DNA from: Nannocystis bainbridge | GTDB taxonomy: Bacteria > Myxococcota_A > Polyangia > Nannocystales > Nannocystaceae | Length of the DNA stretch: 64,000 nt | Assembly (NCBI RefSeq): GCF_028368995.1 | Contig: NZ_JAQNDL010000001.1 | Location: forward strand, 1-64,000 | Direction: 5' to 3' | Part shown: piece by piece, positions 12,637 to 56,227 of the stretch | Layout: each line of letters opens with the position of its first letter | Position numbering within the stretch: position 1 is the first letter of the stretch | Program-made: the position numbers and the translations under genes | Notes under the pieces: generated by a model | Database searches by the model: none | Seen by the model: only the letters and a program-made list of their open reading frames with translations | Told to the model about the DNA's origin: nothing

Positions 12637-14004
12637 TCATGACCTGTGCCTCGGGGCATCCAACGCGACGATCACCTCGACCTCCGGCGTCATCGGCATC
12701 ATGTCGATCGCCAGCGCCGAGGCGGCGCGGTGGCCCGCCTCCAGCATCGATTCGAGGTCGCGCGCCAGCGTGGCCGGGTCGCAGGCGATGAACACCGTGC
12801 GCCCGCTGGCGACCCGGGCCAGCGCCCGCGCCCCCTCGAGGCCGAGGCCGGCGCGCGGCGGGTCGAGCACCACCCGGTCGAAGCTGCGGCCCTCGGCGGC
12901 GTAGCGGGTCAGCGCCCGCGTCACGTCGAGCCGGCGCACCTCGATGTGCGCCTGTCGGTTCGCAGCTGTCTTTTTGGCCATGCGCAGCAGCGCCCCCGCC
13001 GAGCCGCGATCCTCCTCGACCGCGACCACCTCGGCGGCCTCGCGGGCGAGCGCGCGGGTGAAGTTGCCGCCGCCGGCGAACAGCTCGAGCACCTGGCCGC
13101 CGCGGGCGTCGGCCAGCGCGACCACTCGCTCGATCAGGACCCGATTCTGGGCCGCCTGGGCCTGGGCGAACTCGAACGGACCTGTCGAAACGGCCATGTC
13201 CTCGTGGCCAGCATCGGCCAGCGCCAGGCGCCCGCGCCCGAGCACCAGCTCACGCCGACCGCCGCGCGCGACCACGCCGACCACCACGTTGTCGAGCACC
13301 TCGGAGAGCGCGGCGCGCAGGCCGACCTCGTCGGTGTCGCCGCCTTGCGGCGCGAGCCCGGGGATGCCCACGACCACCGCGGCGCCGTCGGACAGCAGGT
13401 GGACCTCGCCGCGTCGCAGCCGTCGCAGCACCTGCGCGAACGCCCCGTCGCCGGCGGCCAGCGCGTGCATACGCGCCAGCGCGTGGTTCAGCGGGGCGTC
13501 GAACACGGGGCAGTGCGCGAGGTGCAAGATCTCGTGCGATTGCCGGCGGTGCAGCCCGAGGCGCAGCTCGTTGCCGACCCGCTCGACGTGCAGGCGGGCC
13601 CGCCTGCGGTAGCCCAGCGCGCGCGGGCTGGCCAGCGCGTGCGGCACCGCGATCCCGAGCCGCCGCAGCGCGCCCTCGGCGATCTGGCGCTTGAGCTCGG
13701 CCTGCGCGGCCGCCCGCGCGTGCTGCAGGCCGCAGCCGCCGCACACGCCCTCGACCGGGCACGGCGGCTTCACGCGATCGGGGCTGGCCTTCAGCACCTC
13801 GATGGTCCGGCCGCGGATCATCCGCCGGCGCTCCTCCGACCTGGCCGCAAGGACATGTTCTCCGGGCAATGCCCCTTCGACCAGCCATGTGCGCGTGTCA
13901 GCGTCGTCGCCGACAGCCCGGCCGACACCCTCGCCGCCGTGGGCGATCCCGCGGATCTCGACGCGCTCGCCGGCCGCGGCCTCCGTGGCCTCCGTCTTCA
14001 TCAT
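12637..14004 (-). CDS. rlmD: RlmD/TrmA-family RNA (uracil-5)-methyltransferase with TRAM domain
   Basis: GEGVG, GALPGE, CPVEGVCGGC Fe-S motif, YRRRARL, LELFAGGGNF, LDPPRAG, IACDPATLARD. Confidence 0.9.
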   Translation of the reverse strand: MMKTEATEAAAGERVEIRGIAHGGEGVGRAVGDDADTRTWLVEGALPGEHVLAARSEERRRMIRGRTIEVLKASPDRVKPPCPVEGVCGGCGLQHARAAAQAELKRQIAEGALRRLGIAVPHALASPRALGYRRRARLHVERVGNELRLGLHRRQSHEILHLAHCPVFDAPLNHALARMHALAAGDGAFAQVLRRLRRGEVHLLSDGAAVVVGIPGLAPQGGDTDEVGLRAALSEVLDNVVVGVVARGGRRELVLGRGRLALADAGHEDMAVSTGPFEFAQAQAAQNRVLIERVVALADARGGQVLELFAGGGNFTRALAREAAEVVAVEEDRGSAGALLRMAKKTAANRQAHIEVRRLDVTRALTRYAAEGRSFDRVVLDPPRAGLGLEGARALARVASGRTVFIACDPATLARDLESMLEAGHRAASALAIDMMPMTPEVEVIVALDAPRHRS

Positions 14005-17785: not shown

Positions 17786-18580
17786 TCACGCGCCCTTGAA
17801 CTCGGCCCTGCGCTTGCCCAGGAAGGCGGCCATGCCCTCCTTTTGATCGGCGGTGTCGAACAGGCCGGCGAACGCCTCGATCTCGAGCGCGTTGGCCTGC
17901 GCCAGCGGCAGGCCGGCGCCGGCGTGCAGCACCCGCTTGGCCTCGGCGACCGCCACGGGGCCCCAGTCGGCGATCTTCTTGGCCGCGGCGAGCGCGACCG
18001 ACAGCGCCTCGCCGGCCGGCACCACGCGGTTGGCGAGGCCGATGCGCGCCGCCTCGGCGGCGTCGATGGTGTCGCCGGTGAGGCACAGCTCGAGCGCGCG
18101 GGCCAGGCCGACGCGCCGCGCCAGCCGCTGGGTCCCGCCGAAGCCGGGGATCACGCCGAGCTTGACCTCGGGCTGGCCGAACTTGGCGTTCTCGGCCGCG
18201 TAGATGAAGTCGCAGGCCAGCGCCAGCTCGCAGCCGCCGCCGAGCGCGAAGCCGTTGACGGCCGCGATCGTCGGGATCGGCAGGCCGGCCAGCGCCTCGC
18301 CGACGCCGTGGCCGGCGCGGGCGAACTCGCGGGCTGTCCCGACGGACATGTCGGCCATCGCCGCGATGTCGGCCCCGGCGACGAACGACTTCTCGCCGGC
18401 GCCGGTCAGCACCAGCGCGCGCACCTCGCCGGCGCGGGCCGCCGCCGCGGTGTCGTCGAGCACCTGCGCGAGCCCGGCGATGACCTCGGGGTTGAGGGCG
18501 TTGAGCGCCTTGGGCCGGCTGATGGTGACGACGCGGACGCGGCCGTCGTCGCTGACGAGCAGGGTGTCGGTGCCGGTCAT
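17786..18580 (-). CDS. Enoyl-CoA hydratase (crotonase)
   Basis: FVAGADI, AVNGFALGGGCELALACD, FGQPEVKLGVIPGFGGTQRL. Confidence 0.95.
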   Translation of the reverse strand: MTGTDTLLVSDDGRVRVVTISRPKALNALNPEVIAGLAQVLDDTAAAARAGEVRALVLTGAGEKSFVAGADIAAMADMSVGTAREFARAGHGVGEALAGLPIPTIAAVNGFALGGGCELALACDFIYAAENAKFGQPEVKLGVIPGFGGTQRLARRVGLARALELCLTGDTIDAAEAARIGLANRVVPAGEALSVALAAAKKIADWGPVAVAEAKRVLHAGAGLPLAQANALEIEAFAGLFDTADQKEGMAAFLGKRRAEFKGA

Positions 18581-20972: not shown

Positions 20973-21046
<74 letters not shown>

Positions 21047-21092: not shown

Positions 21093-21116
21093 CGACCTGT
21101 CCCTTGGGACAGGTCG
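21093..21116. repeat. Perfect inverted repeat of the motif family
   Basis: CGACCTGTCCC-TT-GGGACAGGTCG. Confidence 0.85.
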
Positions 21117-21676: not shown

Positions 21677-24600
21677 TCAGACCTTCTTGTCGCGCGGCCC
21701 CGGCTTCACTGCAGGTTTGGTCGCGTCGTCGGTCTCGGGGCCCTTCGGCCCGAGCGGCGCGCGCGGCAGCAACCCGCCAGGTCCGCCGCCGGGGATCGGG
21801 ATGTCGAACAGCCCGGACTTGCCCTGCGATCGCGACCCCGGACCGATCGGCTCGAAGGGCCGGGGCGCGGGCTTCGGCTCCGCTTCCTGAGCCGGGACCG
21901 GCTCCGCGGCGGCCGGCTTCGCACCTGTCCCGGAGGACATGCCCGAAGTACCAGCTGCTCCGGAGCTCGCCGGCTTCACGCCTGTCCCCGAGGACATGCT
22001 CGAAGCGCCAGCCGCGCCCGGTCGCGTCGGCGCCGCGGGCCCGACGCTGGTCGTCGGGCCCTTCGCCGCCGGGCTCGCCGCTGCGGGCGCAGGCCTCGCC
22101 GCCCCCCCGAGCGGCGACGCCGAACCTGTCCCGACAGCTTTGTCCGCCCCGCCAGGCGCGCTCGTCGACCTCGCGGCCGGGGCCGCGCCCGCCGGCTTCG
22201 TCGCCTCGCTCGCCGTCTGCGGGCTCTTCGTGGTCACCGGCCCGCTCACCGTGGGCCCGCTCGCGGCGCTCGCGGCCTTCACCAGCCCGCTCGCCACCGG
22301 CGTGCTCGCGGCGCTCGCGGCCTTCACCGGTCCGCTCGCCACCGGCGTGCTCGCGGCGCTCGCGGCCTTCACCGGCCCGCTCGTCGGTCGATTCGTCGAT
22401 GGCCCCGGAGCCGCCTTCACCGCCCCGCTCGTCGGCCGGCCGCTCGGCTGCACCGGCGCTCCGCCGGCGGCCTTCACCGGCCCGCTCGTCGCTCGGCCCG
22501 TCGGCTGCGCCGCTCCCGTGCCGGCCGCAAAACTCGTCGCACCAGTCGCAGGCTTCGCCGCTCCGCCGGCCTTCGCCGGCTCCGCAGCGCTCCCTGCTTT
22601 CACGGGCCCGCTCGCCCCCGCAGGGCTCGCGGCCTTCACCGGCCCGCTGGCGACCCCCGCCGTCCTCGTCGCCGCGTTCGCCTCGCTCGCCGCGGGCAGC
22701 GGTCCCGAGGCCGCCCGGCCCGCCGCGGTCGACACCGTCGCGCCCACGCCCGAAGGCGCGCGCCCTGGCGTCGGCGACGACCACCGCGGCGCCTCGCCCG
22801 GCTTGCTCACGCTCGTCTCCGGGGTCGTGGTCGGGCGAGTCGGCAGCGCCCCACCCGGCGGCGCGAACGTCTTGCCCGGCGCCGCGGGTGACACCGCCGG
22901 CTGGCCATGCGCCGGCGTGGCCGGCCTGCCCGCAGGGACAGGTCCCGAAGCACCTGTCCCGGGGGACACCACCGGCTGCCCGTGCGCCGGCGTCAACGAC
23001 CTGCTCGCCGGGACAGGTCCCGAAGCACCTGTCCCCGGAGACACGCTCGGCTGACCCATCACCGGCGTCGGCCGGCTCCCGAGCCCCGCCCCAGGCACCG
23101 CCGCGGGCTGACCCATCACCGGCGTCGGCCGGCTCCCGAGCCCCGCTCCAGGCACCGCCGCGGGCTGCCCCATCACCGGCGTCGGCCGGCTCCCGAGCCC
23201 CGTCGCAGGCACCGCCGCGGGCTGACCCATCACCGGCGTCGGCCGGCTCCCGAGCCCCGTCGCAGGCACCGCCGCGGGCTGACCCATCACCGGCGTCGGC
23301 CGGCTCCCGAGCCCACCGATCCCCGAAGGAGGCGCCGCCGCGGGCTGCCCCATCACCGGCGTCGGCCTGCCCGTCGGCAGCCCGCCCAGCGCGGCCGGCC
23401 GCGTCGGCGCCGGCCCGACCACCGTCTGCCCCATCGGCTTGCTGGCCGCGGGCCCGGACAGACCTGTCCCCGCGCGCATGCTCGATGGGACAGGTCCCGA
23501 AGCACCTGCCCCGCGCGACATGTCCGTACCGACATGTCCCGGAGCACCGGTCGCTTGCGCCTGGGCCGCGCGCACGCTCTCCGGCACCGGCAGCTCGGCC
23601 GGCACCATCATCTGCACCGTGGCCTCGTTGGGGTCGGGCTCGCCGTCCTCGAGCTCGTCGACCTCGTCGGCGTCGACCTCGGCGACATCGTCGTCAACCG
23701 CGTCGGCGTAGCCCTGCTCGGCCTCGCCGTCGCCCGCCGCGGCCTCGTCGTACTCGCCCTCGCCCGCCGCGGCCTCGTCGTACTCGCCCTCGCCCGCCGC
23801 GGCCTCGTCGTACTCGCCCTCGCCCGCCGCGGCCTCGCCCTCGCCCTCGCCGTACTCGCCCTCGTAGGCGCCGCTGTGGCCCAGCGGCTCGTCATCGGCC
23901 GCAGCGGCGATCGTCTCGGCCGCGGCCGCGTCGTCGAGCTCGGAGGAGCTCGCGGGCTGCTCGTCGGCCTCGACGGCGATCTCCACGGAGCTCGGCCCCG
24001 CGGCCTTGACCGGCTTCGACTCCGGCCGGTCGTCGGCGCGCGCGGGGATCCCCAGCGACGCGCGCCGCTCCTCGAGGATCTTGCGCAGCTCGGCCTTGCC
24101 CTCGCGGGTCAGCAGCGTCCGCGAGCGCGCCTTGGGAGCCTCGGCGGCGATGTTCACCCCGGTCCCGCTGCCGGCCGCGAGCGCCTTCGCCCGCAGCGTC
24201 TCGTCGACGTTGATCTCGAAGTCCTCGGGCACTGGCCCATCGGCCAGGTTGGCGAACGGCCCGCTCACGCTCGGCGCCGGCTTCTGGGGCGCGGGCGCGA
24301 GCGGCAGGCTGCGCGGGCGCGCCGAGCCGGCCATCGGGTCGGTCTTCGGCCGCGCACCGACGAGCGTCGGCGTGGTCGAGGCGCGCACCGGCGGCGCGCG
24401 CGGCTCCTCCCAGTCGTCCTCTTCGCACAGCTGGTTCAGGACATCCTGGACCACCACGCGCATCACGTTGGCACTCGGCCACCGCGCCATCGGCTCGAAC
24501 GCGAGGGCCCGGTCGACCAGCTCGATGAGCGGCCGCGGCAGGTCGGGCCGCAGCGTCGCCAGCGATCGCGCCGGCGTGCGGGCCACCGCGAGCAGGCGCT

Positions 24601-25309
24601 CGATCACCGGGCCGATGGCCGGGAAGACCGTCTCGCCCGACATCGCCCGGAACATGGTCGCCGCGATCGACCACAGGTCGCTGCGCGCGTCGAGGTTCTC
24701 GTTGTCGGCGCGGGCCTGCTCGGGCGCGATGTACGAGACCGTGCCGAACACGATGCCGTCGCTCTGGTCGAGCGCCTCGGCCGACAGCTCGCGCACGCGG
24801 GCCAGCCCGAAGTCCAACAGCTTCACGCTGCCGTCGCGGCACAGGAAGATGTTGGCCGGCTTGATGTCGCGGTGAAGGATGCCCTTCGAGTGGGCGGACG
24901 CGAGCACCTCGAGCAGCGCGTCCGTCATCTCGAGCACGGCCACCGGGGGCAGCAGGCCCAGTCGCTCCAGACGTCCCTCGAGCGACTCGCCCTCGAGCAG
25001 CTCCATCACCAGGTACACGTCGCCCTCTTCGGTGATGTCGTCGTCGAGGACGTGGACCGCGTTGCGATGGCCGACGCTGTTGGCCGCGTAACCTTCGCGC
25101 AGGAAGCGGCGCCGCGCCTGCTCGTTGCGCAGGAAGAGCGTGTGCAACACCTTGAGCGCCGCGCGGTTGCCGTTGCGATGCGTGGCCGCGTACACCGACG
25201 CCATGCCGCCGATGGCGATCAGGCTGTCGAGGTGCCACTTGTTTCGCAGCCACCGGCCCACGCGACTCTGGGCCTCCGACAAGAATCTTGTGCTGCTGCC
25301 CCCGACCAA
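21677..25309 (-). CDS. Ser/Thr protein kinase with about 900-aa low-complexity C-terminal tail
   Basis: GGMASVY, ALKVL, HRDIKPAN, DFGLA, GTVSYIAPE; acidic then P/A/G/S/T-rich tail. Confidence 0.93.
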   Translation of the reverse strand: MVGGSSTRFLSEAQSRVGRWLRNKWHLDSLIAIGGMASVYAATHRNGNRAALKVLHTLFLRNEQARRRFLREGYAANSVGHRNAVHVLDDDITEEGDVYLVMELLEGESLEGRLERLGLLPPVAVLEMTDALLEVLASAHSKGILHRDIKPANIFLCRDGSVKLLDFGLARVRELSAEALDQSDGIVFGTVSYIAPEQARADNENLDARSDLWSIAATMFRAMSGETVFPAIGPVIERLLAVARTPARSLATLRPDLPRPLIELVDRALAFEPMARWPSANVMRVVVQDVLNQLCEEDDWEEPRAPPVRASTTPTLVGARPKTDPMAGSARPRSLPLAPAPQKPAPSVSGPFANLADGPVPEDFEINVDETLRAKALAAGSGTGVNIAAEAPKARSRTLLTREGKAELRKILEERRASLGIPARADDRPESKPVKAAGPSSVEIAVEADEQPASSSELDDAAAAETIAAAADDEPLGHSGAYEGEYGEGEGEAAAGEGEYDEAAAGEGEYDEAAAGEGEYDEAAAGDGEAEQGYADAVDDDVAEVDADEVDELEDGEPDPNEATVQMMVPAELPVPESVRAAQAQATGAPGHVGTDMSRGAGASGPVPSSMRAGTGLSGPAASKPMGQTVVGPAPTRPAALGGLPTGRPTPVMGQPAAAPPSGIGGLGSRPTPVMGQPAAVPATGLGSRPTPVMGQPAAVPATGLGSRPTPVMGQPAAVPGAGLGSRPTPVMGQPAAVPGAGLGSRPTPVMGQPSVSPGTGASGPVPASRSLTPAHGQPVVSPGTGASGPVPAGRPATPAHGQPAVSPAAPGKTFAPPGGALPTRPTTTPETSVSKPGEAPRWSSPTPGRAPSGVGATVSTAAGRAASGPLPAASEANAATRTAGVASGPVKAASPAGASGPVKAGSAAEPAKAGGAAKPATGATSFAAGTGAAQPTGRATSGPVKAAGGAPVQPSGRPTSGAVKAAPGPSTNRPTSGPVKAASAASTPVASGPVKAASAASTPVASGLVKAASAASGPTVSGPVTTKSPQTASEATKPAGAAPAARSTSAPGGADKAVGTGSASPLGGAARPAPAAASPAAKGPTTSVGPAAPTRPGAAGASSMSSGTGVKPASSGAAGTSGMSSGTGAKPAAAEPVPAQEAEPKPAPRPFEPIGPGSRSQGKSGLFDIPIPGGGPGGLLPRAPLGPKGPETDDATKPAVKPGPRDKKV
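23051..23370. repeat. 57-bp coding tandem repeat (SRPTPVMGQPAAVPxxGLG) x5-6
   Basis: CTGACCCATCACCGGCGTCGGCCGGCTCCCGAGCCC recurring every 57 bp. Confidence 0.9.
23731..23850. repeat. 30-bp coding tandem repeat (GEGEYDEAAA) x3-4
   Basis: CGCCCGCCGCGGCCTCGTCGTACTCGCCCT repeated exactly three times. Confidence 0.9.
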
Positions 25310-26691: not shown

Positions 26692-28641
26692 GTGCTGAAG
26701 ACCGTCCGTGTCCCGCCGCGGTTCGAGCCGCTGTTCGAGCAGGCGCAGGAGTTTGTCGGGCGGATCTTCGCCGAGCGTAGCGACATCCCTGACAAGGGCC
26801 GGATCGAGGTCTTCGGCCAGCGCTACATGCTCGTGCGGGCGCGGGCCATGTCGGTCGAGTTCTTCGAGATGGTCCAGCGGCTGTACCGCGACAAGGGCCA
26901 GGACGAGGCGCTGGGGGTCGCGCGGAGCCTGTTGTTCGACATCGCTCACGCCATGGGGCTCTCGGACGCCAACGACTTCGCCGAGCGCATGCATTTGCAA
27001 GATCCGATCGCCCGGCTGTCCGCGGGCCCCATCCACTTCTCGCACTCCGGGTGGGCCTTCGTGGACATCTCGCCCGAGAGTCGTCCGGCCCCGGACGAGA
27101 GCTTCTACCTCCTCTACGATCACCCCTACTCGTTCGAATCGGACTCGTGGATCGACGCCGGCAAGCGGCCCGATTTCCCCGTATGCGTGATGAACGCTGG
27201 TTACTCCTCGGGTTGGTGCGAAGCCAGCTTCGGGGTCCCGCTGGTGGCGACGGAGATCCTCTGCCGGGCCAAGGGCGACGATCACTGTCGCTTCATCATG
27301 GCCCACCCCTCCCGGATCGAGGGCTACATCGACGCCTACCTCCACGGCCAGCCGCACCTCGCCGCTCACGTCACGCGCTACGAGATCCCCGGCTTCTTCT
27401 CGCGCAAGCAGCAGGAGGACGAGCTCAAGAGCCGCGAGGAGCAGTACCGCGGGATCTTCGAGGCCGGCACCAACGCCCTCCTCATCCTCGACGAGGCCGG
27501 CGTGATCGTGCAGGCCAACCCGGCCGCCTCGCGGCTGTTCCGCTGCTCGCGCCCCGAGCTCGCCGGGCGCAGCTTCGCCGATCTGCTGAACGCTGGCGCC
27601 GACCTGTTCGCCCGCCTGCGCGCGGCCGTCCACGATCACGGCCACTTCCTGTCCGAAGGGACAGCCACCGCCACCGACGGCCGCACCTACGTCGTCGAGC
27701 TGCGGGGCGCCCGCTTCCGCCTGCAGAACCGCGACCACCTGCTGGCCGTGCTGACCGACATCACCGAGCAGAACCGGGCCCAGCTCGCGCTGCGCCAGGC
27801 CCACGACGAGCTCGAGCAGCGGGTCCGCGAGCGCACCGCCGAGCTCGAGCGGCTCAACCAGCAGCTCCACCTCCTCAACGGCCAGTTGGTCTCCGCGCGC
27901 GACTCGGCGATCGACGCCAGCCGGGCCAAGAGCGCCTTCCTCGCCAACATGAGCCACGAGCTGCGGACCCCGCTCAACGCCATCATCGGCTACAGCGAGC
28001 TGCTCGAGGACGAGAGCGGCGAGGAGGGCCGCCAGCACCTCGACCTCGGCGACCTCGGCAAGATCCGCGGCTCCGCCCGCCACCTGCTCGCCCTCATCAA
28101 CGACATCCTCGACGTCTCCAAGATCGAGGCCGGCAAGATGGAGCTGTTCGTCGAGGACTTCGCCGTCGACGAGTTGGTCGCGGAGGTCGTCGCCACCATC
28201 GAGCCGCTCGTGCGCAAGAACGACAACCGGCTCGAGATCACCACCCGCCCCGGCCTCGGCGCCGTCGCCCTCGACCGCACCAAGGTCAAGCAGATCATCA
28301 TCAACCTGCTCGGCAACGCCTGCAAGTTCACCCACAGCGGCGTCATCGGCCTCCTCGTCGCGCGCGAGGATGGGCCGCACGGCGAGCAGCTCGTCGTCGC
28401 CGTCCAGGACACCGGCATCGGCATCGACCCGACCCGCCTCGAGGAGCTGTTCCAGCCGTTCCGCCAGGCCGACGAGTCGACCACCCGCAAGTACGGCGGC
28501 ACCGGCCTCGGCCTGTCGATCAGCCGCCACTACGCCGAGATGATGCGCGGCCGCATCGACGCCCGCAGCGCCCCCGGCCAGGGCTCGACCTTCACCGTCA
28601 CCCTGCCCCTCTCCGCCCGCGGCGTCGAAGCGGCCGAGTGA
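26692..28641 (+). CDS. Sensor histidine kinase, XylR_N/V4R + PAS + HisKA + HATPase
   Basis: PVCVMNAGYSSGW..EILCRAKGDDHCRF (V4R); ANPAA PAS; FLANMSHELRTPLN; NLLGNACKFT, DTGIG, GGTGLGL. Confidence 0.95.
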   Translation: MLKTVRVPPRFEPLFEQAQEFVGRIFAERSDIPDKGRIEVFGQRYMLVRARAMSVEFFEMVQRLYRDKGQDEALGVARSLLFDIAHAMGLSDANDFAERMHLQDPIARLSAGPIHFSHSGWAFVDISPESRPAPDESFYLLYDHPYSFESDSWIDAGKRPDFPVCVMNAGYSSGWCEASFGVPLVATEILCRAKGDDHCRFIMAHPSRIEGYIDAYLHGQPHLAAHVTRYEIPGFFSRKQQEDELKSREEQYRGIFEAGTNALLILDEAGVIVQANPAASRLFRCSRPELAGRSFADLLNAGADLFARLRAAVHDHGHFLSEGTATATDGRTYVVELRGARFRLQNRDHLLAVLTDITEQNRAQLALRQAHDELEQRVRERTAELERLNQQLHLLNGQLVSARDSAIDASRAKSAFLANMSHELRTPLNAIIGYSELLEDESGEEGRQHLDLGDLGKIRGSARHLLALINDILDVSKIEAGKMELFVEDFAVDELVAEVVATIEPLVRKNDNRLEITTRPGLGAVALDRTKVKQIIINLLGNACKFTHSGVIGLLVAREDGPHGEQLVVAVQDTGIGIDPTRLEELFQPFRQADESTTRKYGGTGLGLSISRHYAEMMRGRIDARSAPGQGSTFTVTLPLSARGVEAAE

Positions 28642-30180: not shown

Positions 30181-33069
30181 TCAGCGCTCGCTCGGATCGA
30201 GGCCCTGGATCCCCGCCACCATCACCGCGTGCAGCCGCGGCTCGTCGATGTGGGCCGCGATCGCGTCGGCGGTCAGGTCGCGCAGGCGGACGATGTCGAC
30301 CAGCGTCTTGCCCGCCGGCGTGATCGGCGGCAGCACCTGCACCTCGATCGGCACGTGGCGCGGCAGCCATGTCCCGTCATGGAGCGCGTTGCGAGTGCCG
30401 CGCAGCGCGATCGGCACCACCGGCACACCTGTCTCGCAGGCCAGGCGGAACGCCCCGAGCTTGAACGGGCGCAGCCCGGCCTCGCGGCTGAACGTGCCCT
30501 CCGGGAACACCACCACCGGCGAGCCCGACCGCAGCACCTCCGCCACCGCCTCGAGCCCTGCCAGCGCGCGCTCGGCCTGCAGCCGCTCGATCAGCACGTG
30601 GCCCGCCCGCTGGATCAGCGGCCCGAAGGCCCGGTTGTCGCGGCACTCGCCCTTGACCACGAAGCGGATCGTGTCGGGCAGCGCCGCCAGCAGCACGAAC
30701 GGGTCGAGGTAGCTGCAGTGATTAGGCGCCAGCACACATGGCCCTTCGGGCATGTTCTCGAGGCCAGTCACTTGCGGGCGCAGGCCGATGGTCGTCAGCG
30801 TCGCGCGGGCCACGTTGCGCGAGAAGCTGCGCAGCGGCTTGCCCGCCGGGATCAGGCGGCCGGCCGCGGTCGAGGCCGCCAGCATCCCGCCGAACGTGCC
30901 GAGCGCGAAGCTGCCGTACGCGACCTCGCCGGCGCGCCCGGCCAGCGCCTTCGCGCGACGCGGCAGCCCGCGCAGGTAAAGGCCCGCCGCCTGGCGCGCG
31001 AACGATCCGTGACTGCGGCCCAGCTCGCCCGCCAGATACAGCCGACGCGTGTCGCTGCGGCGGATCTTCCCGCTCGAGGTCTTCGGCACCGCGCCCGGCC
31101 CGGTCAGCACCACGCGATCGGGCGGGACGCCCACGGTGCTGGCGATCGCCTCGCCGATCTTCTGCTGCAGCGCCTGCCGGGCCTCGGGGCGCTCCTCCTT
31201 GGTCTCCGCGACCACCACGATCGACTCGGTCCCGCTCGCCTCGTCGCGCACGGCGAACGCGGCCACGCAGCCCTGGCGCACCCCCGGCACCGCGCCCGCG
31301 GCCGCCTCGATCTCGTGCGGGTAGTAGTTGCGGCCGCCCTTGATGATCAGGTCCTTCACGCGGCCCGAGATGAACAGCTCGCCATCCACCAGATAACCGA
31401 GGTCGCCCGAGTCGACCCAACCGTCGGCCAGCTTGACCTTCGCCGTCGCCTCCGGGTTGCGGTAGTAGCCCTTGAACGCCGACGGCCCGCGGAACAGGAT
31501 CCGGCCCTGACGGCGGTCCGGCAGCGGCGCCCCGGCCTCGTCGGCGATCCGCACCTCGTGGCTGGGCACCGCCGCGCCGCAGCCGACGAACTGCAGCACC
31601 TCGCTCTCGGGCGCCTCCCCTGCGGCCGCTCGCGCCTCGCCGCTCCCCTCGAACGTCGCCCGCTCGACCCGATCGACGAAGGGTCCGCGGCCCGGCGGCG
31701 GGAACGTCACCGCGACCATGTTCTCGGCCAGGCCGTAGGCGCAGAACAGCGCCTCGCGGTGGAACCCCGCCGGCGCCAGGTGGGCGGCGAAGCGATCGAG
31801 CGTGCTCGCCAGGATCGGCTCCGAGCCGTTGAGCAGGGCCCGGATCGGCCCCAGCTGCAGCGGCGCGATCGTCTCCGGCGGGACCCGCTTGACGCACAGG
31901 TCGAACGCGAAGTTGGGCGCGCACGAGATCGTGCCCTTGTAGTGCGAGAACGCCTGCAGCCACCGCTCGGGCCGGGCCAGGAACGTCACCGGCGACAGGA
32001 TCACCGTGGCTGTCCCGAAGTACAGGTTCATCAGCCACCCGCCGACCAGCCCCATGTCGTGGTAGAGCGGCAGCCAGCTGATCATCACGTCGCCGGCCCG
32101 CAGCCCGCAGCCCTCGGCCGCCGCGCGGATGTTGGCGAGCACGTTGGCGTGCGTCAGCTCGACGCCCTTGGGGTCGCCGGTGCTGCCCGACGTGTACTGC
32201 AGCAGCGCCGTGTCCTCGCCGCGCAAGTCGGCCGCCACCGCCGTGTCGAGGCTGGCGTCGGCCAGCGCCTCGTCGACGTCGACCACCTGCCCGAGCGCCG
32301 GCACCTGATCGCGCACCAGCTCGGCGACCCGGGCCGCGCGCGCGAACGTGATCAGCACCTCGGCCTCGGCGTTGGCCAGGATCTGCGCCTCGCGCTGGAT
32401 GTACTCGGCGATCCGGTCGAGGCGGAACGGCGGGTACAGCGGCACCGGCACCCCGCCGGCCAGCTGCGCGCCCATGAACGCCGCGAAGTACCCGCGCGAC
32501 GTCGGCAGCATGATCGCCACCTTGGCGCCCGGCTTCAGCCCGCGCCGCCGCAGCGCCGCCGCCACCCGCCCGGCGTCGCGCCGCAGCGCCCCGTACGTGA
32601 TCGCCTCCTCGCGCCCGTCCTCGCGCAGCAGCATGACGTGGACCCGCCCCGGCGTGCGCCCGGCGTGGTACTCGAGCGCCTCGATCAGCGTCTGCGCGGC
32701 GGTCGGCGCCGGCGACGGCGGCTCTGTCGGCAAGGACATGTCCTCGGAGACATGTGCTTTCGGACCTGCGCTCACGGACATGTCCGCAGCGCCATCCCCG
32801 CGCGCCTGCCGGGCCAGCGCCACCAGCTGACGCGGGGTGTCGGCGACGCTGAGCGCCTCCTCCGGGAACACGACCCCGAGGCGGGCCTCGAGCCGGCCGA
32901 GCAGCTCGACGCGCTCGAGGCTGCCGAGGCCGAGCTCGCGCTCGAGCGAGGCGTCGAGGTTGAGGTGGCCGAGGCCGCGTCCGTCGCCGACGGCGGAGAT
33001 GAGCTCGCCGACGACGGCGAGGACCGTGGCCTCCTCGATCGGGCCCGGAGCGGAGGGCGTGCCTGACAT
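30181..33069 (-). CDS. ACP - fatty acyl-AMP ligase - PlsC-type acyltransferase fusion
   Basis: LGLGSLERVEL (ACP), QYTSGSTGDPKG, SWLPLYHDMGL, YGLAE, SGDLG, PKTSSGK; NHCSYLD, FPEGT. Confidence 0.92.
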   Translation of the reverse strand: MSGTPSAPGPIEEATVLAVVGELISAVGDGRGLGHLNLDASLERELGLGSLERVELLGRLEARLGVVFPEEALSVADTPRQLVALARQARGDGAADMSVSAGPKAHVSEDMSLPTEPPSPAPTAAQTLIEALEYHAGRTPGRVHVMLLREDGREEAITYGALRRDAGRVAAALRRRGLKPGAKVAIMLPTSRGYFAAFMGAQLAGGVPVPLYPPFRLDRIAEYIQREAQILANAEAEVLITFARAARVAELVRDQVPALGQVVDVDEALADASLDTAVAADLRGEDTALLQYTSGSTGDPKGVELTHANVLANIRAAAEGCGLRAGDVMISWLPLYHDMGLVGGWLMNLYFGTATVILSPVTFLARPERWLQAFSHYKGTISCAPNFAFDLCVKRVPPETIAPLQLGPIRALLNGSEPILASTLDRFAAHLAPAGFHREALFCAYGLAENMVAVTFPPPGRGPFVDRVERATFEGSGEARAAAGEAPESEVLQFVGCGAAVPSHEVRIADEAGAPLPDRRQGRILFRGPSAFKGYYRNPEATAKVKLADGWVDSGDLGYLVDGELFISGRVKDLIIKGGRNYYPHEIEAAAGAVPGVRQGCVAAFAVRDEASGTESIVVVAETKEERPEARQALQQKIGEAIASTVGVPPDRVVLTGPGAVPKTSSGKIRRSDTRRLYLAGELGRSHGSFARQAAGLYLRGLPRRAKALAGRAGEVAYGSFALGTFGGMLAASTAAGRLIPAGKPLRSFSRNVARATLTTIGLRPQVTGLENMPEGPCVLAPNHCSYLDPFVLLAALPDTIRFVVKGECRDNRAFGPLIQRAGHVLIERLQAERALAGLEAVAEVLRSGSPVVVFPEGTFSREAGLRPFKLGAFRLACETGVPVVPIALRGTRNALHDGTWLPRHVPIEVQVLPPITPAGKTLVDIVRLRDLTADAIAAHIDEPRLHAVMVAGIQGLDPSER

Positions 33070-35870: not shown

Positions 35871-35908
35871 GCAGGTGTCCGTTCGGACATGTCCGAACGA
35901 ACACCTCG
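35871..35908. repeat. 14-bp-period motif, 3 units
   Basis: GCAGGTGTCC GTTC GGACATGTCC GAAC GAACACCT. Confidence 0.75.
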
Positions 35909-47700: not shown

Positions 47701-47780
47701 GCACCTGCCTGTTCGGCCATGTCCTTACCGACATGCCCCTCGGCGCATGTCCCTTGCGGCATGTCCCGACGAACATGTCC
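47701..47780. repeat. 14-bp-period palindromic array, 6 units
   Basis: GCACCTGCCT GTTC GGCCATGTCC TTAC CGACATGCCC CTCG GCGCATGTCC CTTG CGGCATGTCC CGAC GAACATGTCC. Confidence 0.9.
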
Positions 47781-47797
47781 CCGAGGAGCCCCCGCTC

Positions 47798-48775
47798 GTG
47801 AGCCCGCGCCTGCGCACCGCGATCAAGCTGCTGCTCGGCCTCGGCCTGCTGGCCGCGCTCGTGTGGTCGCTGGTGCCCGGCGGCGACGCCCTGCGGGCCG
47901 CGTTGGCGCGGGCTGAGCTGCGGCCCGGCTGGCTCGGCGTGTGCCTGCTGGCGACCTTCGCCGCCACCCTCGTCACCAGCGCGCGCTGGCGGCTGATGGC
48001 CGAGGCGATGGGCGGCAACCGCCTGCCGCTGATCGCCTACTTCCACAGCCTCGCGCTGACCAAGATCCTCGGCCAGGTCAGCTCGGCCTTCGTCATGGAC
48101 ATTGTCGGCCGCGGCGTCGCGCTGCGGGCCGCCGGTTCGCAGCGCGGCCTCGGCCACGCGATCACCCAGGCCGTGCTCGAGCGGGTGTTCGACCTCGTGC
48201 TCCCGGTCATGCTGCTCGCCTGGGCCCTGGTCGCCTGGCGCGGCCAGTTCAGCGCCGCCGAGGCGGCCGGCTCGTTCGCCGGCGTGTGCCTGCTGTTCGC
48301 CGCGCTCGCCGCGGTGTGCCTGGCCCCGCTGACGCGCCTGGCCCTGCGCACCTATGCGGCCGCGCGCGACCTGCGAGCCCGCCTGCGCCGGGTCGCCGCC
48401 CCCGACGAAGCGCTCGAGCCGCCCGTCGTGAACCGCCGCCTCGCCGTCCAGATCGGCGTCTACAGCCTGCTGCGCTACCTCTCGGCCATGCTGCTGTTCT
48501 GGTCGACCGCGGCCGGCATCGGCGTCGACTTCAGCTTCTTCCAGATCGCCGCCGCGACCCCGATCGGCCAGCTCGCCGGCATGCTGGGCTTCACGCCGGG
48601 GGCGCTGGGGATCCAGGAAGCCGGGTGGGTCGGCGGCTTCAAGTGGGTCGGGGCCGACGACGCCGCGATCGCCCTGTTCGTCCTCAGCTCGCGCCTCGTC
48701 ATGACCGCCTCGTTCGCCGTGCTGGTGCTGATCAGCTGGCCGCTGCTCCGCCGCAGCCGCGCCGCCCAGGCGTGA
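47798..48775 (+). CDS. Second lysylphosphatidylglycerol synthase TM / flippase-like protein
   Basis: SARWRL, VLERVFD, TPGALGIQEAG; GAGGAG RBS before GTG 47798. Confidence 0.88.
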   Translation: MSPRLRTAIKLLLGLGLLAALVWSLVPGGDALRAALARAELRPGWLGVCLLATFAATLVTSARWRLMAEAMGGNRLPLIAYFHSLALTKILGQVSSAFVMDIVGRGVALRAAGSQRGLGHAITQAVLERVFDLVLPVMLLAWALVAWRGQFSAAEAAGSFAGVCLLFAALAAVCLAPLTRLALRTYAAARDLRARLRRVAAPDEALEPPVVNRRLAVQIGVYSLLRYLSAMLLFWSTAAGIGVDFSFFQIAAATPIGQLAGMLGFTPGALGIQEAGWVGGFKWVGADDAAIALFVLSSRLVMTASFAVLVLISWPLLRRSRAAQA

Positions 48776-48789
48776 GCCGACGCTGCGCG

Positions 48790-48855
48790 ACGCATGTCTC
48801 ATCGGCCATGCCCTCGCGGACATGTCTGCTTCGACATGTCCGATTCGACATGCCC
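48790..48855. repeat. 14-bp-period palindromic array, 5 units
   Basis: ACGCATGTCT CATC GGCCATGCCC TCGC GGACATGTCT GCTT CGACATGTCC GATT CGACATGCCC. Confidence 0.9.
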
Positions 48856-48867
48856 CCAAGGGACACA

Positions 48868-50874
48868 TCAAGGCGTGACGATGGCGAACGCCGGCGGGAA
48901 GCGGTCGAGCAGGCCGAGGAACTCCTCGACCGCCGCCCGCTTGCCGCGCAGCTTGAGCGCCCGGGCGGCCAGCGCCTGCTCGATCGTCGTCTCGCCCATC
49001 TGCAGCTCGATCAGCGTCATCTTCGCCAGCACTAGCCCGGCGTCCGCGTCCGCGTCTGCGTCCTCGGCGGTGCGGCGGGCGTAGTTGAGGACCCCGCGCT
49101 CGACCGTCAGCCTGTAGCGCTCGTCGAGGTCGGTGAACTCCACGTCGAGCTTCAGCGTCGTCGCGGCCGCGCGGGCGCCGTTGAGGCGGACCGCCAGATA
49201 GTCGAACAGCAGCGTCGGCGGCAGCGCGCGCAGCGTGTCGCGCCCGCTCGAGTCGATCGCCGCCGCCTCGGGCACCCCGTGGCGCAGCTCGTAGGCGCCC
49301 TGCAGGTACTCCGAGCGCCACGGCCCCGACTCGGCCTGATAACCCAGCTGCTCGTACGCGTCGGCCAGCAGCTCCTTGCCCGCCGCGCTGTCCGGGTTGG
49401 CGAACACCACGTGGCGCAGCACCTGCGCCGCCCAGCGGTACTCGCCGCGCGCGAAGTCGGCGCGCGCCCGCTCCAGCACCGCCGCCTCGCCGCCCATGTA
49501 CTCGACGTATTTGCGGGCCGCCGGCTCCTGCGGCAGCTCGTCGAGGTCCGACGGGTTGCCGCTGTAGAAGCCCATGTAGCGCTGGTACACCGCGCGCGCG
49601 TTGTGGCGGACCGTCCCGTAGTAGCCGCGATTCGGCCAGTAGTGGGCCAGCGCCGGCGGCAGCTCGAGGTACTCGGCGATCTCCGTGCCGATGTAGCCGA
49701 AGTTCAGCATGTGCACCGACTGATCGTGGATGTACTTGTAGAGGTCGCGCTGCTGCTCGAGGTAGGCGCGCACCTGCTTCTGGCCCCACATCGGCCAGTG
49801 ATGGGCCTGGAACTTGACCTCCAACCCGGCCCCGTACAGCTCGATCGTCTCCTGCAGGTGCTTGGCCCACGCCAGCGCGTCGCGGACCTTGGCCCCGCGC
49901 AGCGTCAGGATGTTGTGAAGCGTGTGCGTCGCGTTCTCGGCCATCCACATCGCCTTGAACTGCGGGAAGTAGGTGTTCATCTCCGACGGCGCCTCGGTGT
50001 CGGGCGTCAGCTGGAACACCATCTTCACCCCGTCGATCGTCAGCTCCTGCCCGGTGCGGGTGATCGTCTGCGTCGGAGCGATCAGCGACACCGTCCCCGA
50101 CGCCATCGCGACCCCGAGCCCGCTGCCCACGTTGCCCTGGGCGTCGCGCGGCAGGAACGTCCCGTACATGTACGCCGCGCGCCGGGTCATCGCCGCGCCC
50201 GCGAGCACCATCTCGCTGACCGCGTGGGCCAGGAAGCCCTCCGGCGCGATGATCCGGACCCGGCCGGAGCGCACGTCGGCCTCGTCGACCAGCCCGCGCA
50301 CCCCGCCGTAGTGATCGGGGTGCGAGTGGCTGTAGATCACCGCCACGATCGGCCGGTCGCCGAGGTGCTGCTTGACCAGCGCGTGCGCGGCCCTGGCCGT
50401 CTCGATCGTCAGCAGCGGGTCCATCACGATCCACCCGCGGTCGCCCTTGATGAACGTGATGTTCGCCAGGTCGAACCCGCGGACCTGATAGATCCGCTCC
50501 GACACTTTGAACAGCCCGTAGATCAGGTTGAGCTGCGACTGGCGCCACAGGCTCGGGTTCACCGTGTCGGGCGGCGGCGCGTCGCGGCGGATGAATTTCT
50601 TGAACGGCTCGAGGTCCCACACCACGTTGCCGTCGCCGTCCTTGATCGTCAGCGTGTGCGGGCGCGCGATCAGGCCCCGCTCGGCGTCCTCGAAGTCGGC
50701 GCGGTCGGCGAACGGCAGCCGCTGCTGCAGCGCCGCGTTGGCCTGTCGCGTCGCCTCGCTCGCTGGCTTCGGCCCCGCCGGCCCCGCCGCCAGCACCGCG
50801 TAACGTACCCCGGCCAGCAGCGACCCGAGGGCGGCCAGCGCGATCAGCCATGCACGAGGTCGGCGGAGCTGCAT
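48868..50874 (-). CDS. Alkyl/aryl sulfatase, SdsA1/YjcS family (metallo-beta-lactamase fold)
   Basis: TVNPSLWRQ, YSHSHPDHYGG, TPDTEAPSEM, HNILTLRGA, HHWP, RGYYG, C-terminal SCP2-like domain. Confidence 0.95.
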   Translation of the reverse strand: MQLRRPRAWLIALAALGSLLAGVRYAVLAAGPAGPKPASEATRQANAALQQRLPFADRADFEDAERGLIARPHTLTIKDGDGNVVWDLEPFKKFIRRDAPPPDTVNPSLWRQSQLNLIYGLFKVSERIYQVRGFDLANITFIKGDRGWIVMDPLLTIETARAAHALVKQHLGDRPIVAVIYSHSHPDHYGGVRGLVDEADVRSGRVRIIAPEGFLAHAVSEMVLAGAAMTRRAAYMYGTFLPRDAQGNVGSGLGVAMASGTVSLIAPTQTITRTGQELTIDGVKMVFQLTPDTEAPSEMNTYFPQFKAMWMAENATHTLHNILTLRGAKVRDALAWAKHLQETIELYGAGLEVKFQAHHWPMWGQKQVRAYLEQQRDLYKYIHDQSVHMLNFGYIGTEIAEYLELPPALAHYWPNRGYYGTVRHNARAVYQRYMGFYSGNPSDLDELPQEPAARKYVEYMGGEAAVLERARADFARGEYRWAAQVLRHVVFANPDSAAGKELLADAYEQLGYQAESGPWRSEYLQGAYELRHGVPEAAAIDSSGRDTLRALPPTLLFDYLAVRLNGARAAATTLKLDVEFTDLDERYRLTVERGVLNYARRTAEDADADADAGLVLAKMTLIELQMGETTIEQALAARALKLRGKRAAVEEFLGLLDRFPPAFAIVTP

Positions 50875-51125: not shown

Positions 51126-53210
51126 TCACGGCGCCACGAGCACGCGCGCCGAGCGGGCCGGCACCATCACCGACGGACCCTCGACCATCTCTCCCGTCAG
51201 CTCGTCCTTGAGCGCCATCCCTGGCAGCCCGCCGACCGACTTGCCCGCGTCGCTGCGGTTGACCGCGACCCACACCGTCTCGCCCTCGCCGGACATCGAG
51301 TAGGTCAGCGAGTCGGCGTCGGCGCCGAGGCGGGCGTACGAGCCGCGGCGCAGCGCCGGGTGGGCCGCGCGGATCGCCCCGAGGTCCTGAATATGGCCCA
51401 AAAGCCAGCTCTGCCCGCTCGAGTAATTCGACCACTGCATGAAGCGGCGGTTGTCGGGGTCGCCCGCGCCGGGCATGCCGACCTCGTCGCCGTAGTAGAC
51501 CAGCGGCGCCCCGGGCGTCGTGTAGAGCAGCGTGAACGACAGCCCCAGCCGCTCGAACGCCGCGGCCCCGACCGGCAGCCCCGGCTTGTCGTTCCACGCC
51601 TTGTCCTTGCCGTCGGCCCACTGGTTGTTCCACACCGGCGAGTCCTCGGCCAGGTGGATCGCGCGCGGGATGTCGTGGTTGCCGATGAACGTGCTCATCA
51701 CCGCCGCGCCGCCGTTGTAGTAGTCGGTGTTGGCGTCGAAGAAATCGGCCAGCTCGTTCATCGAGCCCTGGCGCATCAGCACGTTGTAGGCCATCTGCAT
51801 GCGCAGCGGGAAGTCGAACTGCCCGTCGAGCTTGTCGCAGCCGACGTACTTGTTGATGGTCGGCTTGTCGCCCGTGAACGTCTCGCCGACCATGTAGAAG
51901 TGCTGCCCCGACATCGGCTCGATGTCGGCCTTGACGCGCGCGCGCAGGTCGAGCAGCCACTCGATCTTGATGTGCTTGACCGCGTCGAGGCGGAACCCGT
52001 CGGCGCCGGTGTCCTTGATCCACTGGATCGCGTTGTCGATCGAGTAGTCGCGGGCCGCCTGGTTGCTGAAGTCGAAGTCGGGCAGGTAATCGGTGAACCA
52101 GCAGCGCTCGCCGTCGGCCCCGTCCCACGAGCAGCCGGCCCCGCACACGCAGTCGCCGCCGTTGCCGTTGTCGTTCGGGTTGAACCAGCTCGGGTTGTCG
52201 ACATACACGGGCGCGGTGATGTGGACGTGGTTCATCGCGTAGTCGAGGATGACCTTGAGGTCGGCCGCGTGAGCCGCCGCCACCAGCGCCTGCAGCTCGG
52301 CCAGCGAGCCGAAGTGCTCCTCCGTCTGTGACAGGTCCGTCGGCCAGTAGCCGTGGTACGCGCTGTACATGTGCCCGTCGGTGCCCAGCCCGTCGTCCGA
52401 GGTGTTGTTCATCGGCACCGTCAACCACAGCGTGTTGACGCCGAGCTCGTTGAAGTAGCCGTCCTCGATCTTCGCCGTCACCCCGGCCCAGTCGCCGCCC
52501 TGCCAGTCCGCCGCCGTCTCGACCCCCGTCAGCGCGTCGTTGCCGGGGTCGCCGTTGTTGAAGCGGTCGACGAACACGAAGTAAATGATCGAGTCGCGCC
52601 AGTCGAAGCCGCCGTCCTGCGTCACCGCGCACGAGGCCGCCTCGCAGGTGAACTCCTCGCAGGTCATCGGCTGCAGCACCGAGTTGTAGCCGCCGAAGCC
52701 GTCGTCGATCTGGTCGGGGTTGTTCGGGTCGGGGATCCACGCCATCGACCCGTCGATGCGCAGCTTGTACTGCACCGACGTGTCCCACGGGACAGGTACC
52801 GTCACCCGCCAGTTGGTGCCGTCGCTCGTCATCGCCGCGCCCTTCGACCAGCCGTCGGGCGCGAAGCTGCCCATCACGTCGACCGACGTCTCGCCCATGT
52901 CGGGGTAGGTGAACTCGTAGGCGCAGCGCTTCAGCGCTTCGTCACACATCGGCGGCGGCGGCTCGCCGGTGGTCGGGTCGCCGGTCGTGGTCGGATCGAC
53001 CTGCCCGCCGGTCGCGTAGCCGGTCACGCCGCCGCCCTGCGACGGGTCGTACGGCATCGTGCTCGGCGGCATCGTCGCCGAGTCGGTCGTCTCCGACTCG
53101 AGCGGCGGATCGGTGCAACCGATCACCGACAGGAGCGACAGGACAGGCAAGATCCGGAGAAGGCGAGCCACGCAGCTCCGAGGATGGCGCCGCGACCCGC
53201 CCGGGGTCAA
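51126..53210 (-). CDS. GH13 alpha-amylase-family lipoprotein with CBM48-like domain
   Basis: SVIGC lipobox; FVDRF, YHGYW, GFRLDAVKH, VGE, NHD, YYGDE; start uncertain. Confidence 0.93.
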   Translation of the reverse strand: MTPGGSRRHPRSCVARLLRILPVLSLLSVIGCTDPPLESETTDSATMPPSTMPYDPSQGGGVTGYATGGQVDPTTTGDPTTGEPPPPMCDEALKRCAYEFTYPDMGETSVDVMGSFAPDGWSKGAAMTSDGTNWRVTVPVPWDTSVQYKLRIDGSMAWIPDPNNPDQIDDGFGGYNSVLQPMTCEEFTCEAASCAVTQDGGFDWRDSIIYFVFVDRFNNGDPGNDALTGVETAADWQGGDWAGVTAKIEDGYFNELGVNTLWLTVPMNNTSDDGLGTDGHMYSAYHGYWPTDLSQTEEHFGSLAELQALVAAAHAADLKVILDYAMNHVHITAPVYVDNPSWFNPNDNGNGGDCVCGAGCSWDGADGERCWFTDYLPDFDFSNQAARDYSIDNAIQWIKDTGADGFRLDAVKHIKIEWLLDLRARVKADIEPMSGQHFYMVGETFTGDKPTINKYVGCDKLDGQFDFPLRMQMAYNVLMRQGSMNELADFFDANTDYYNGGAAVMSTFIGNHDIPRAIHLAEDSPVWNNQWADGKDKAWNDKPGLPVGAAAFERLGLSFTLLYTTPGAPLVYYGDEVGMPGAGDPDNRRFMQWSNYSSGQSWLLGHIQDLGAIRAAHPALRRGSYARLGADADSLTYSMSGEGETVWVAVNRSDAGKSVGGLPGMALKDELTGEMVEGPSVMVPARSARVLVAP

Positions 53211-56098: not shown

Positions 56099-56104
56099 CC
56101 TCGC

Positions 56105-56183
56105 GGACATGCCCCCGACGACATGTCCCGAGCGACATGTCGCAGTCGACATGTCCCGGTCGACATGCTCCCGCGGACACCCC
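56105..56183. repeat. 14-bp-period palindromic array, 5-6 units
   Basis: GGACATGCCC CCGA CGACATGTCC CGAG CGACATGTCG CAGT CGACATGTCC CGGT CGACATGCTC CCGC GGACA. Confidence 0.92.
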
Positions 56184-56227
56184 ACGAAGCCCGGCCGCGC
56201 CGCCCGCTCATTCGCCCGCGCGCGCGC

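Follow-up and report, generated by a model that had tools for sequence, protein, structure and literature searches.

The gene rlmD of Nannocystis bainbridge raises the question of why a conserved stretch of protein should be written in codons that are rare in the genome around it. The gene lies at 12637–14004 on the minus strand of the window, by which we mean the whole stretch of DNA analysed here (64,000 nucleotides, positions 1 to 64,000 of contig NZ_JAQNDL010000001.1, assembly GCF_028368995.1). The encoded protein has a match to PF05958, the tRNA(U5)/rRNA methyltransferase family (E=7e-18), and its nearest named relatives are RlmD-like genes of Nannocystis species, with 87–90% identity. 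The minus strand at 13837–13888 encodes EGALPGEHVLAARS, and EGALPGEHVL is written GAA GGG GCA TTG CCC GGA GAA CAT GTC CTT; letters and codons are as quoted in a first-pass annotation of this DNA, which had suggested that a short motif is written into conserved domains with rare codons as a second code over the genes. The genome-wide shares of the ten codons are, in order, 9.1, 19.7, 2.2, 4.5, 30.9, 2.8, 9.1, 10.5, 57 and 1.4%, with a product of ∼1e-11, and the codons described as scarce are indeed rare (GAA 9.1%, GCA 2.2%, TTG 4.5%, GGA 2.8%, CAT 10.5%, CTT 1.4% and GGG 19.7%). The name given to the segment fares less well, as it finds a weak match to Pfam TRAM (E=0.018, 15.4 bits, below the 21-bit cut-off). 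The answer that we favour, and consider probable, is that these codons belong to a genus-specific, hyper-abundant word that would be read as duplex DNA by a putative symmetric protein; selection or drive would maintain it, and protein constraint would limit where it stays.

A phased palindromic word in rlmD and in the genome

The rlmD segment holds an array of three decamer units with a 14-bp period (13837–13874; CGACCTGGCC / GGACATGTTC / GGCAATGCCC). Genome-wide, the repeat unit is the palindromic decamer GGACATGTCC, with units phased every 14 bp, and the 14-mer TGTCC-N4-GGACA from which the first-pass annotation started is the junction of two such units. The 11.05-Mb source genome has 1,987 perfect copies of this 14-mer, 12 of them in the window, where ∼10 are expected from base composition, and 956 copies of the decamer, where ∼9 are expected. 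With up to one mismatch the 14-mer has 6,245 genomic copies, and the distances between neighbours among these peak at 14, 28, 42, 56 and 70 bp (485, 274, 165, 58 and 28 cases, respectively); the longest arrays have 8–10 units. Within the unit the central CATG hardly varies; the outer positions are looser, as is the 4-bp spacer, which prefers Y-Y-R-R on both strands, and no conserved sequence was seen beyond ∼±10 bp of the motif. An iterated 24-bp position weight matrix (PWM) with a site threshold of at least 14 bits finds 11,079 sites genome-wide. It scores the two rlmD registers, 14 bp apart, at 24.4 and 17.8 bits, scores at which real coding sequence exceeds synonymous shuffles ∼50-fold and ∼13-fold, respectively. 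A second array in rlmD (13178–13215; GGACCTGTCG AAAC GGCCATGTCC TCGT GGCCAG) reaches 22.1 bits, and its one-mismatch core at 13197 is retained in five of five relatives.

Genes were called from the periodicity of GC content at third codon positions (GC3), which is ∼0.95 for the genome, giving 7,873 genes that cover 84% of it. The perfect copies divide into 1,152 intergenic copies, 818 in genes (41%) and 17 across a gene edge. Those in genes are evenly distributed along them and have a flanking GC3 with a mean of 0.92 and a median of 0.95; this mean indicates that they lie in real coding sequence. Synonymous codons were shuffled within genes, and 819 perfect copies were observed against 24.0 in the shuffles (34-fold); one-mismatch copies numbered 1,821 against 439.4, and positions scoring at least 14 bits in coding sequence 3,870 against 251.5 (15-fold). 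As local maxima of the matrix, these amount to 3,864 distinct in-gene sites, and 1,858 of 7,871 genes have at least one. All three frames are occupied (observed and shuffled counts of 67 and 1.0 in phase 0, 284 and 1.0 in phase 1, and 467 and 24.0 in phase 2), with the largest excess in the two that need rare codons, phases 0 and 1. A force acting at the DNA level over coding sequence is thus the right class of explanation, given the excess over synonymous shuffles and its concentration in the rare-codon frames.

That the in-gene copies are a product of chance or of codon context is scarcely credible in view of these excesses. In the window alone, 40 in-gene sites reach 14 bits or more where shuffles predict ∼1.5, and the reversed pattern, used as a control for the 18-mer CMTGTCC-N4-GGACAKG with which the taxonomic range was searched, gave 0 matches against 616 for the 18-mer itself. 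Such an origin does suit the matches with two mismatches, which show no excess in genes (4,208 observed, 4,720.4 in synonymous shuffles), so weak look-alikes taken singly can be chance; it also suits phase-2 near-matches that come from common V-P-x-D peptides, as at 62172.

The cost of the word in codon usage is visible throughout the genome. Of the codons covered by the motif, 32.4% end in A or T, against 6.0% of codons elsewhere, and the dip in GC3 that the first-pass annotation had predicted at the motif is present, third positions flanking the fixed core being 0.45–0.79 GC (0.45 at position −3 in phase 2). Stretches of ten codons of which five or more end in A or T number 3,650, and 744 of them touch a motif site, against a background of 1.9%; the word accounts for a fifth of local GC3 dips. 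The word is itself 60% GC, yet it becomes denser as local GC rises (3.8 per 20 kb at 66–69% GC, 14 at 72% or more), in parallel with an accumulation in resident DNA; among genes, its density is lowest in those with GC3 of at least 0.97.

A test for regular spacing between clusters had also been suggested in the first-pass annotation, and no long-range regularity was found in the source genome (coefficient of variation, CV, of cluster spacing 1.18; median/mean 0.63). The distance of in-gene clusters from intergenic ones is not increased (p=0.08), and in-gene sites do not compensate for missing intergenic sites. Avoidance of CATG, as under restriction, was not seen in the source genome (observed/expected 1.24). 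As a separate observation, CTAG is strongly depleted genome-wide, with 1,509 occurrences against 7,649 expected under a Markov model (ratio 0.2).

The 18-mer is present in ten of ten other genomes of the genus, with 6–498 copies each, the reversed control giving 0–2; across the genus its density is 1–56 copies per Mb. Within the family, copies were also found in two sister genera (9 and 7) and in a third (2), with none in the other five genomes searched; in other families of the class it is absent from 11 of 12 genomes, and 300 further genomes sampled from the phylum have at most two copies each, which is within the control range. High copy number is thus limited, among the genomes searched, to the genus of the window. 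The 9 and 7 copies in the sister genera compare with an expectation of well under 1. In one of these genomes (G011) each is a lone 20-bp palindrome in DNA that is richer in AT and apparently non-coding, and in this genome and another (G013) their surroundings are at ∼60% GC; these copies may be ordinary operators of an ancestral binding protein.

Substitution, insertion and conservation within genes

The first-pass annotation had argued that insertion cannot explain the in-gene copies. Orthologues from genera without the word were aligned for four genes, and no indel was found at any of the sites concerned (rlmD, 18335, 61796, 62172 and 27650); the motif segments are gap-free in all four genes, which shows that the word was written there by point substitution. 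For rlmD, 16 of 80 loci were used (the closest 13 and three others), and the EGALPGE block is gap-free in 17 sequences, including 11 more distant orthologues. The rare codons are common to six close species, and the other sequences use GAG/GAC, GGC, GCC/GCG and CTG. The LamB-family porin gene (61180–62808, plus strand) carries a site at 61791–61814 (22.6 bits) on GLSFWAGS, which is conserved in the family. After a filter for at least 80% coverage, which dropped two sequences, the 24 aligned sequences have no indel at this site (61796); close species write TCC TTT TGG GCA GGT TCT and most outgroup genera AGC ATC/GTG TGG GCC GGC TCC/TCG. The site at 62172 in the same gene is likewise without an indel relative to motif-poor genera.

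The other two genes tell a complementary story at the protein level. The enoyl-CoA hydratase gene (17786–18580, minus strand) has a site at 18330–18353 whose perfect core is found in six of six close species, with a varying 4-nt spacer; 35 aligned sequences are gap-free at this site (18335), and the D/E-Q/E of the outgroup is replaced by G-T (GGG ACA). The histidine-kinase gene (26692–28641) has a perfect 14-mer core in its PAS domain at 27645–27668, around residue 320. Six full-length loci of 25 were aligned, and FLSEGTA at this site (27650) stands gap-free against YNAEKIA, YHAELVG and FQGEVVA in the outgroup. rlmD and the porin thus show synonymous shifts to rare codons in conserved peptides, and the hydratase and the PAS domain show amino-acid replacements at variable positions: constrained peptides received synonymous substitutions, and unconstrained ones non-synonymous substitutions. 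Together with the 34-fold excess over shuffles, these substitutions support the first-pass view of a DNA-level force, selected or mutationally driven, acting over the genes.

The porin, PAS and GH13 sites lie where the first-pass annotation had put them, and all 12 places that it had marked (including those near 3885, 6322, 13178, 18335, 30735 and 59634) score 13.4–24.4 bits. The GH13-family gene (51126–53171, minus strand) has a perfect core at 52776–52799 (19.3 bits), at which relatives differ by substitution only, one relative being unaligned. Its position was correctly given; as for the protein, it falls at residue ∼126, N-terminal to the catalytic domain (198–590 by Pfam limits).

The argument against insertion does not extend to every copy. 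Indels occur in 20 of 228 aligned relative–site comparisons, and a minority of copies sit in linkers with many indels or in segments of low complexity, where they may have been captured or inserted; the first-pass claim holds for the tested sites of the four genes and is less certain for this minority. One such copy is the LamB site at 61329, in an indel-rich low-complexity N-terminus. Another is an array of five junctions in 14-bp steps at 32720–32799 (matrix hits at 32720, 32734, 32748, 32762 and 32776) in the gene at 30181–33069 on the minus strand, which is translated as the linker between PP-binding and AMP-binding domains and may be a former intergenic array captured by gene fusion. Even so, it is very improbable that the in-gene copies as a class are frame-preserving insertions of a small mobile element of the miniature inverted-repeat or repetitive extragenic palindrome (REP) type, as the four genes are gap-free, nothing is conserved past ∼±10 bp, the 14-bp period is not a multiple of three and no Y1 transposase was found in the source genome.

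A region of a different character lies in a Ser/Thr protein-kinase gene (21677–25282, minus strand). Its C-terminal two-thirds (21921–23530) are unusual in composition, with a GC content at second codon positions of 0.64, and hold at least 13 motif sites, part of them in 14-bp register and others at 57-bp intervals; this appears to be a low-complexity repeat region in which the word abounds.

Conservation was measured by aligning positions 1–150,000 of the source contig with the syntenic regions of five congeners (six genomes in all), between which coding third positions differ by 13.5% on average. At 53 in-gene sites, variability was expressed relative to a codon-position baseline. The arms (2 × 5 bp) are variable at 77 of 437 positions (1.03 times the baseline), the 4-bp spacer at 55 of 172 (2.10 times), the ±8-nt flanks at 170 of 702 (1.51 times) and positions 25–45 nt from the site at 353 of 1,828 (1.18 times); three-mismatch control sites stay at 0.96–0.98 times the baseline throughout. 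The arms are about half as variable as the spacer (Fisher p=1.9e-4) and also differ from the flanks (p=0.0096), from which it appears that in-gene copies lie in locally fast-evolving segments with their arms held back relative to the surroundings. Of in-gene sites with at least 16 bits, 252 of 313 aligned orthologous positions keep at least 14 bits, and 52 more were unaligned. The spacer is the most variable part of in-gene sites, more so than the flanks, and this includes codon positions 1 and 2; mutation could be frequent there because the spacer is extruded as a loop, or the residues that it encodes may simply be under the least constraint.

Arrays behind stop codons: duplex site or hairpin

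The densest habitat of the word is one on which the first-pass annotation was silent, namely phased arrays directly behind stop codons. With intergenic regions of less than 20–40 bp or more than 1.5–3 kb left out, copies with up to one mismatch are densest in convergent spacers, 56% of which have at least one; the densities are 5.03 per kb there, 1.82 per kb between tandem genes and 0.67 per kb between divergent ones. Among the 5,570 gene 3′ regions scored, each with a spacer of at least 40 bp, 2,226 (40%) have a site within 150 bp, the first site standing at a median of 14 nt past the stop. A T-run is found in 257 of the 5,570 (<5%), so that most genes lack a canonical terminator. Nor do the arrays look like intrinsic terminators, which combine a hairpin with a U-tract: a T-run accompanies 117 of the 2,226 motif-bearing 3′ regions, and no enrichment of T was seen downstream of the motif. 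Where the source genome has an array, the orthologous spacer also has one in 158 of 174 comparisons, against 9 of 190 where it has none (Fisher p=3e-71; 36 comparisons without anchors were set aside). Array presence is thus conserved between species, and unit number and spacer letters turn over.

Several intergenic arrays of the window illustrate this. At 56096–56175, between convergent genes, five CATG cores stand at a 14-bp period (RNA fold z −2.3); the orthologous spacers of four relatives have phased CATG arrays that differ in spacer letters and unit number. In one relative the spacer orthologous to 56085–56241 holds ∼1.3 kb of extra DNA, comprising about three tandem copies of a ∼390-bp unit with motif arrays flanking. 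The array at 48790–48860 lies between the convergent genes 47747–48775 (plus) and 48868–50874 (minus) and folds with z −5.0; five of five relatives have arrays in this spacer. A further site between convergent genes, at 35871–35903 (TGTCC GTTC GGACATGTCC GAAC), folds with z −4.85. A perfect copy at 21093–21116 follows a tRNA gene (20973–21046) and its hairpin/T-run terminator directly, ∼20 bp beyond the latter; an Rfam scan of the window returned tRNA only.

Such a habitat invites a reading at the RNA level, in which the word is an RNA or single-strand hairpin, of the REP or U-tract-less terminator type, that stops transcription or protects 3′ ends, the in-gene copies being by-products or acting in antisense. 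The position of the arrays just past stops, in 40% of 3′ regions in a genome with so few T-runs, and their enrichment in convergent spacers are what a hairpin of this kind would give, and the fold of the porin site (z −4.5) agrees with it. So does a small excess of compensated double variants among intergenic copies (CG 117 against 69.5 expected). The pattern of variation argues the other way. Single-arm variants are nearly as frequent as the consensus and far exceed compensated doubles (945 against 154 for pair 2–11 in intergenic copies), near-invariance is limited to CATG, and the other stem pairs are Watson–Crick in 50–73% of copies. The spacers show no orientation relative to transcription (TTCG 64, CGAA 52), and neither the rlmD segment (z −0.57) nor the linker array (z −1.19) folds better than shuffles. 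A hairpin of the REP type is further disfavoured by the 41% of perfect copies that lie in genes and by the failure to find the Y1 transposase associated with REPs (RAYT; PF01797) in the source genome (marker completeness 90.5%, five contigs; the control was found in 6 of 14 genomes). We hold the hairpin as a tentative possibility. Given that uncompensated variants dominate, that spacers are strand-symmetric, that T-tracts are missing and that two in-gene arrays (in rlmD and in the linker) fold no better than shuffles, we favour over a hairpin, with moderate confidence, the prediction that a symmetric protein recognises the word in duplex DNA.

Under duplex recognition, a symmetric protein, dimeric or oligomeric, would read the word as double-stranded DNA. 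The build-up of the word would then reflect either selection for such sites or a drive linked to recognition, explanations of the kind put forward for uptake sequences and for the cyanobacterial highly iterated palindrome HIP1, and protein constraint would set where in genes it persists. Arrays bound in this way at gene ends might serve in termination, as roadblocks, in topological insulation or in uptake tagging.

Two candidates for the machinery behind the word were tried. The PadR operator is ATGT-N8-ACAT, and a PadR protein was accordingly considered as the reader; this lead was rejected, as PF03551 was not found in the source genome (the control was found in 14 of 14 genomes). A REP model driven by RAYT was rejected on the same kind of grounds, PF01797 not having been found there.

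A number of points weigh against recognition as duplex DNA followed by selection or drive. No binding protein has been identified, the PadR candidate having failed. The intergenic arrays fold well as RNA, with z-scores from −2.3 to −5.0, and in tandem 3′ regions, read on the sense strand, variants that keep a G.U pair outnumber those that leave A.C (1,237 against 966, or 56:44; p=8e-9), as a hairpin would have it; this asymmetry could reflect some selection at the RNA level or a mutation bias linked to transcription. The depletion of the word in low-GC DNA may have other causes. The gene calls are our own and rest on GC3, not on curated annotation, and the conservation of the arms comes from 53 sites in one 150-kb region of six related, non-independent genomes, with the sites ascertained in one of them. 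Gains and losses of the perfect form relative to one-mismatch copies nearly cancel (13 against 14), so that no ongoing drive is visible, and selection and biased conversion fit the data alike.

Known genomic words and the meaning of the Nannocystis word

The comparison with DNA uptake sequences and HIP1 made in the first-pass annotation is apt, as both the coding and the clade-specific behaviour are shared. The accessible portion of PMC2817400 describes the uptake sequences of Pasteurellaceae (USS) and Neisseriaceae (DUS) as clade-specific short words with thousands of copies, 34.5–65% of them in open reading frames (here 41%), made by substitution and placed at poorly conserved residues. In the same portion they are sparse in atypical DNA and absent from genes without homologues, and their intergenic copies often lie behind genes, all of which the Nannocystis word resembles. 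The frames that they occupy use preferred codons, according to that portion of PMC2817400, and the Nannocystis word departs from them here, its enrichment being strongest in rare-codon frames; it is also palindromic and arranged in strict 14-bp phased arrays.

A strict uptake sequence, with preferential uptake and recombination driving its accumulation in genes and spacers, would account for the copy number, the share in reading frames, the restriction to one clade and the scarcity in atypical DNA. Homologues of ComEC and DprA are present in the source genome, and HIP1 has recently been linked to transformation in the accessible accounts of it; ComEC and DprA do not discriminate, as they are also present in most control genomes. 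The phasing and the start of the arrays are atypical for an uptake sequence, and the literature search found no uptake data for the genus. To our knowledge, strict 14-bp phased arrays that start right after stops are not a feature of any uptake sequence. By this analysis we regard a strict uptake sequence as unlikely.

HIP1 (GCGATCGC), in the sections of the HIP1 literature that were accessible, is a palindrome that abounds in one clade, in coding and non-coding DNA alike, that is more conserved than expected and whose function is disputed; it is an 8-mer, has been tied to two methyltransferases, DmtA and DmtC, and is quasi-periodic along the genome. Like HIP1 and other cyanobacterial iterated palindromes as described there, the Nannocystis word is hyper-abundant in genes and spacers and is kept at orthologous positions. 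Unlike HIP1 in those sections, its unit is a 10-mer with a local 14-bp period, and it shows no long-range regularity and is strongly tied to gene 3′ ends.

The arrangement behind genes recalls other elements. REPs and bacterial interspersed mosaic elements (BIMEs) are short palindromic units that occur in hundreds to thousands, in arrays behind genes and between convergent genes, and the Nannocystis units are likewise palindromic and clustered in arrays behind genes. They differ in being fully symmetric, without an orienting head sequence, in having 818 of 1,987 perfect copies in genes, in weak covariation and in that no RAYT was found. Operator arrays of ribbon-helix-helix proteins, such as the met-boxes of MetJ and the heptads of omega, consist of short units at a fixed short period and are found at a handful of promoters. 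Palindromic or invertible units, a fixed period and variable neighbours are shared with these arrays and suggest cooperative, side-by-side binding of dimers; the Nannocystis word differs in occurring in thousands, behind and inside genes.

We file the word as a variant of the clade-specific, hyper-abundant genomic words. In the literature searched, the 14-bp phasing of a self-complementary decamer combined with overwriting in three frames was not found described, and searches on palindromic or inverted repeats of Nannocystis and on myxobacterial REPs returned no description of the word, although an earlier one may exist. Few such words exist (USS, DUS, HIP1, REP), and where they come from and what they do is still a matter of debate; this one unites traits that are usually separate, namely REP-like arrays behind genes, overwriting of coding sequence like that by uptake sequences and HIP1, and strict phasing at 14 bp. 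The force behind it suffices to maintain runs of codons with shares of 1–10% in conserved domains of a genome with 95% GC3.

A bolder and quite unlikely reading of the same arrays is that phased CATG arrays form a genus-wide, factor-dependent and bidirectional gene-end signal that replaces U-tract terminators and is read on duplex DNA by a dedicated symmetric protein, the in-gene copies being selected to stop or mark antisense transcription or to serve as uptake or identity tags. As the word is palindromic and translated sense transcripts would be read through, the in-gene copies would in that case act on untranslated antisense transcription, and the word would be a genuine second code, with the strength to impose rare codons and altered residues on roughly one gene in four. 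The genus is culturable and produces natural products, and several complete genomes at ∼8% divergence are available; culturability and these genomes make models of a protein site, an RNA hairpin or an uptake tag directly testable. The word also bears on gene calling, codon optimisation and the design of expression constructs in these bacteria.

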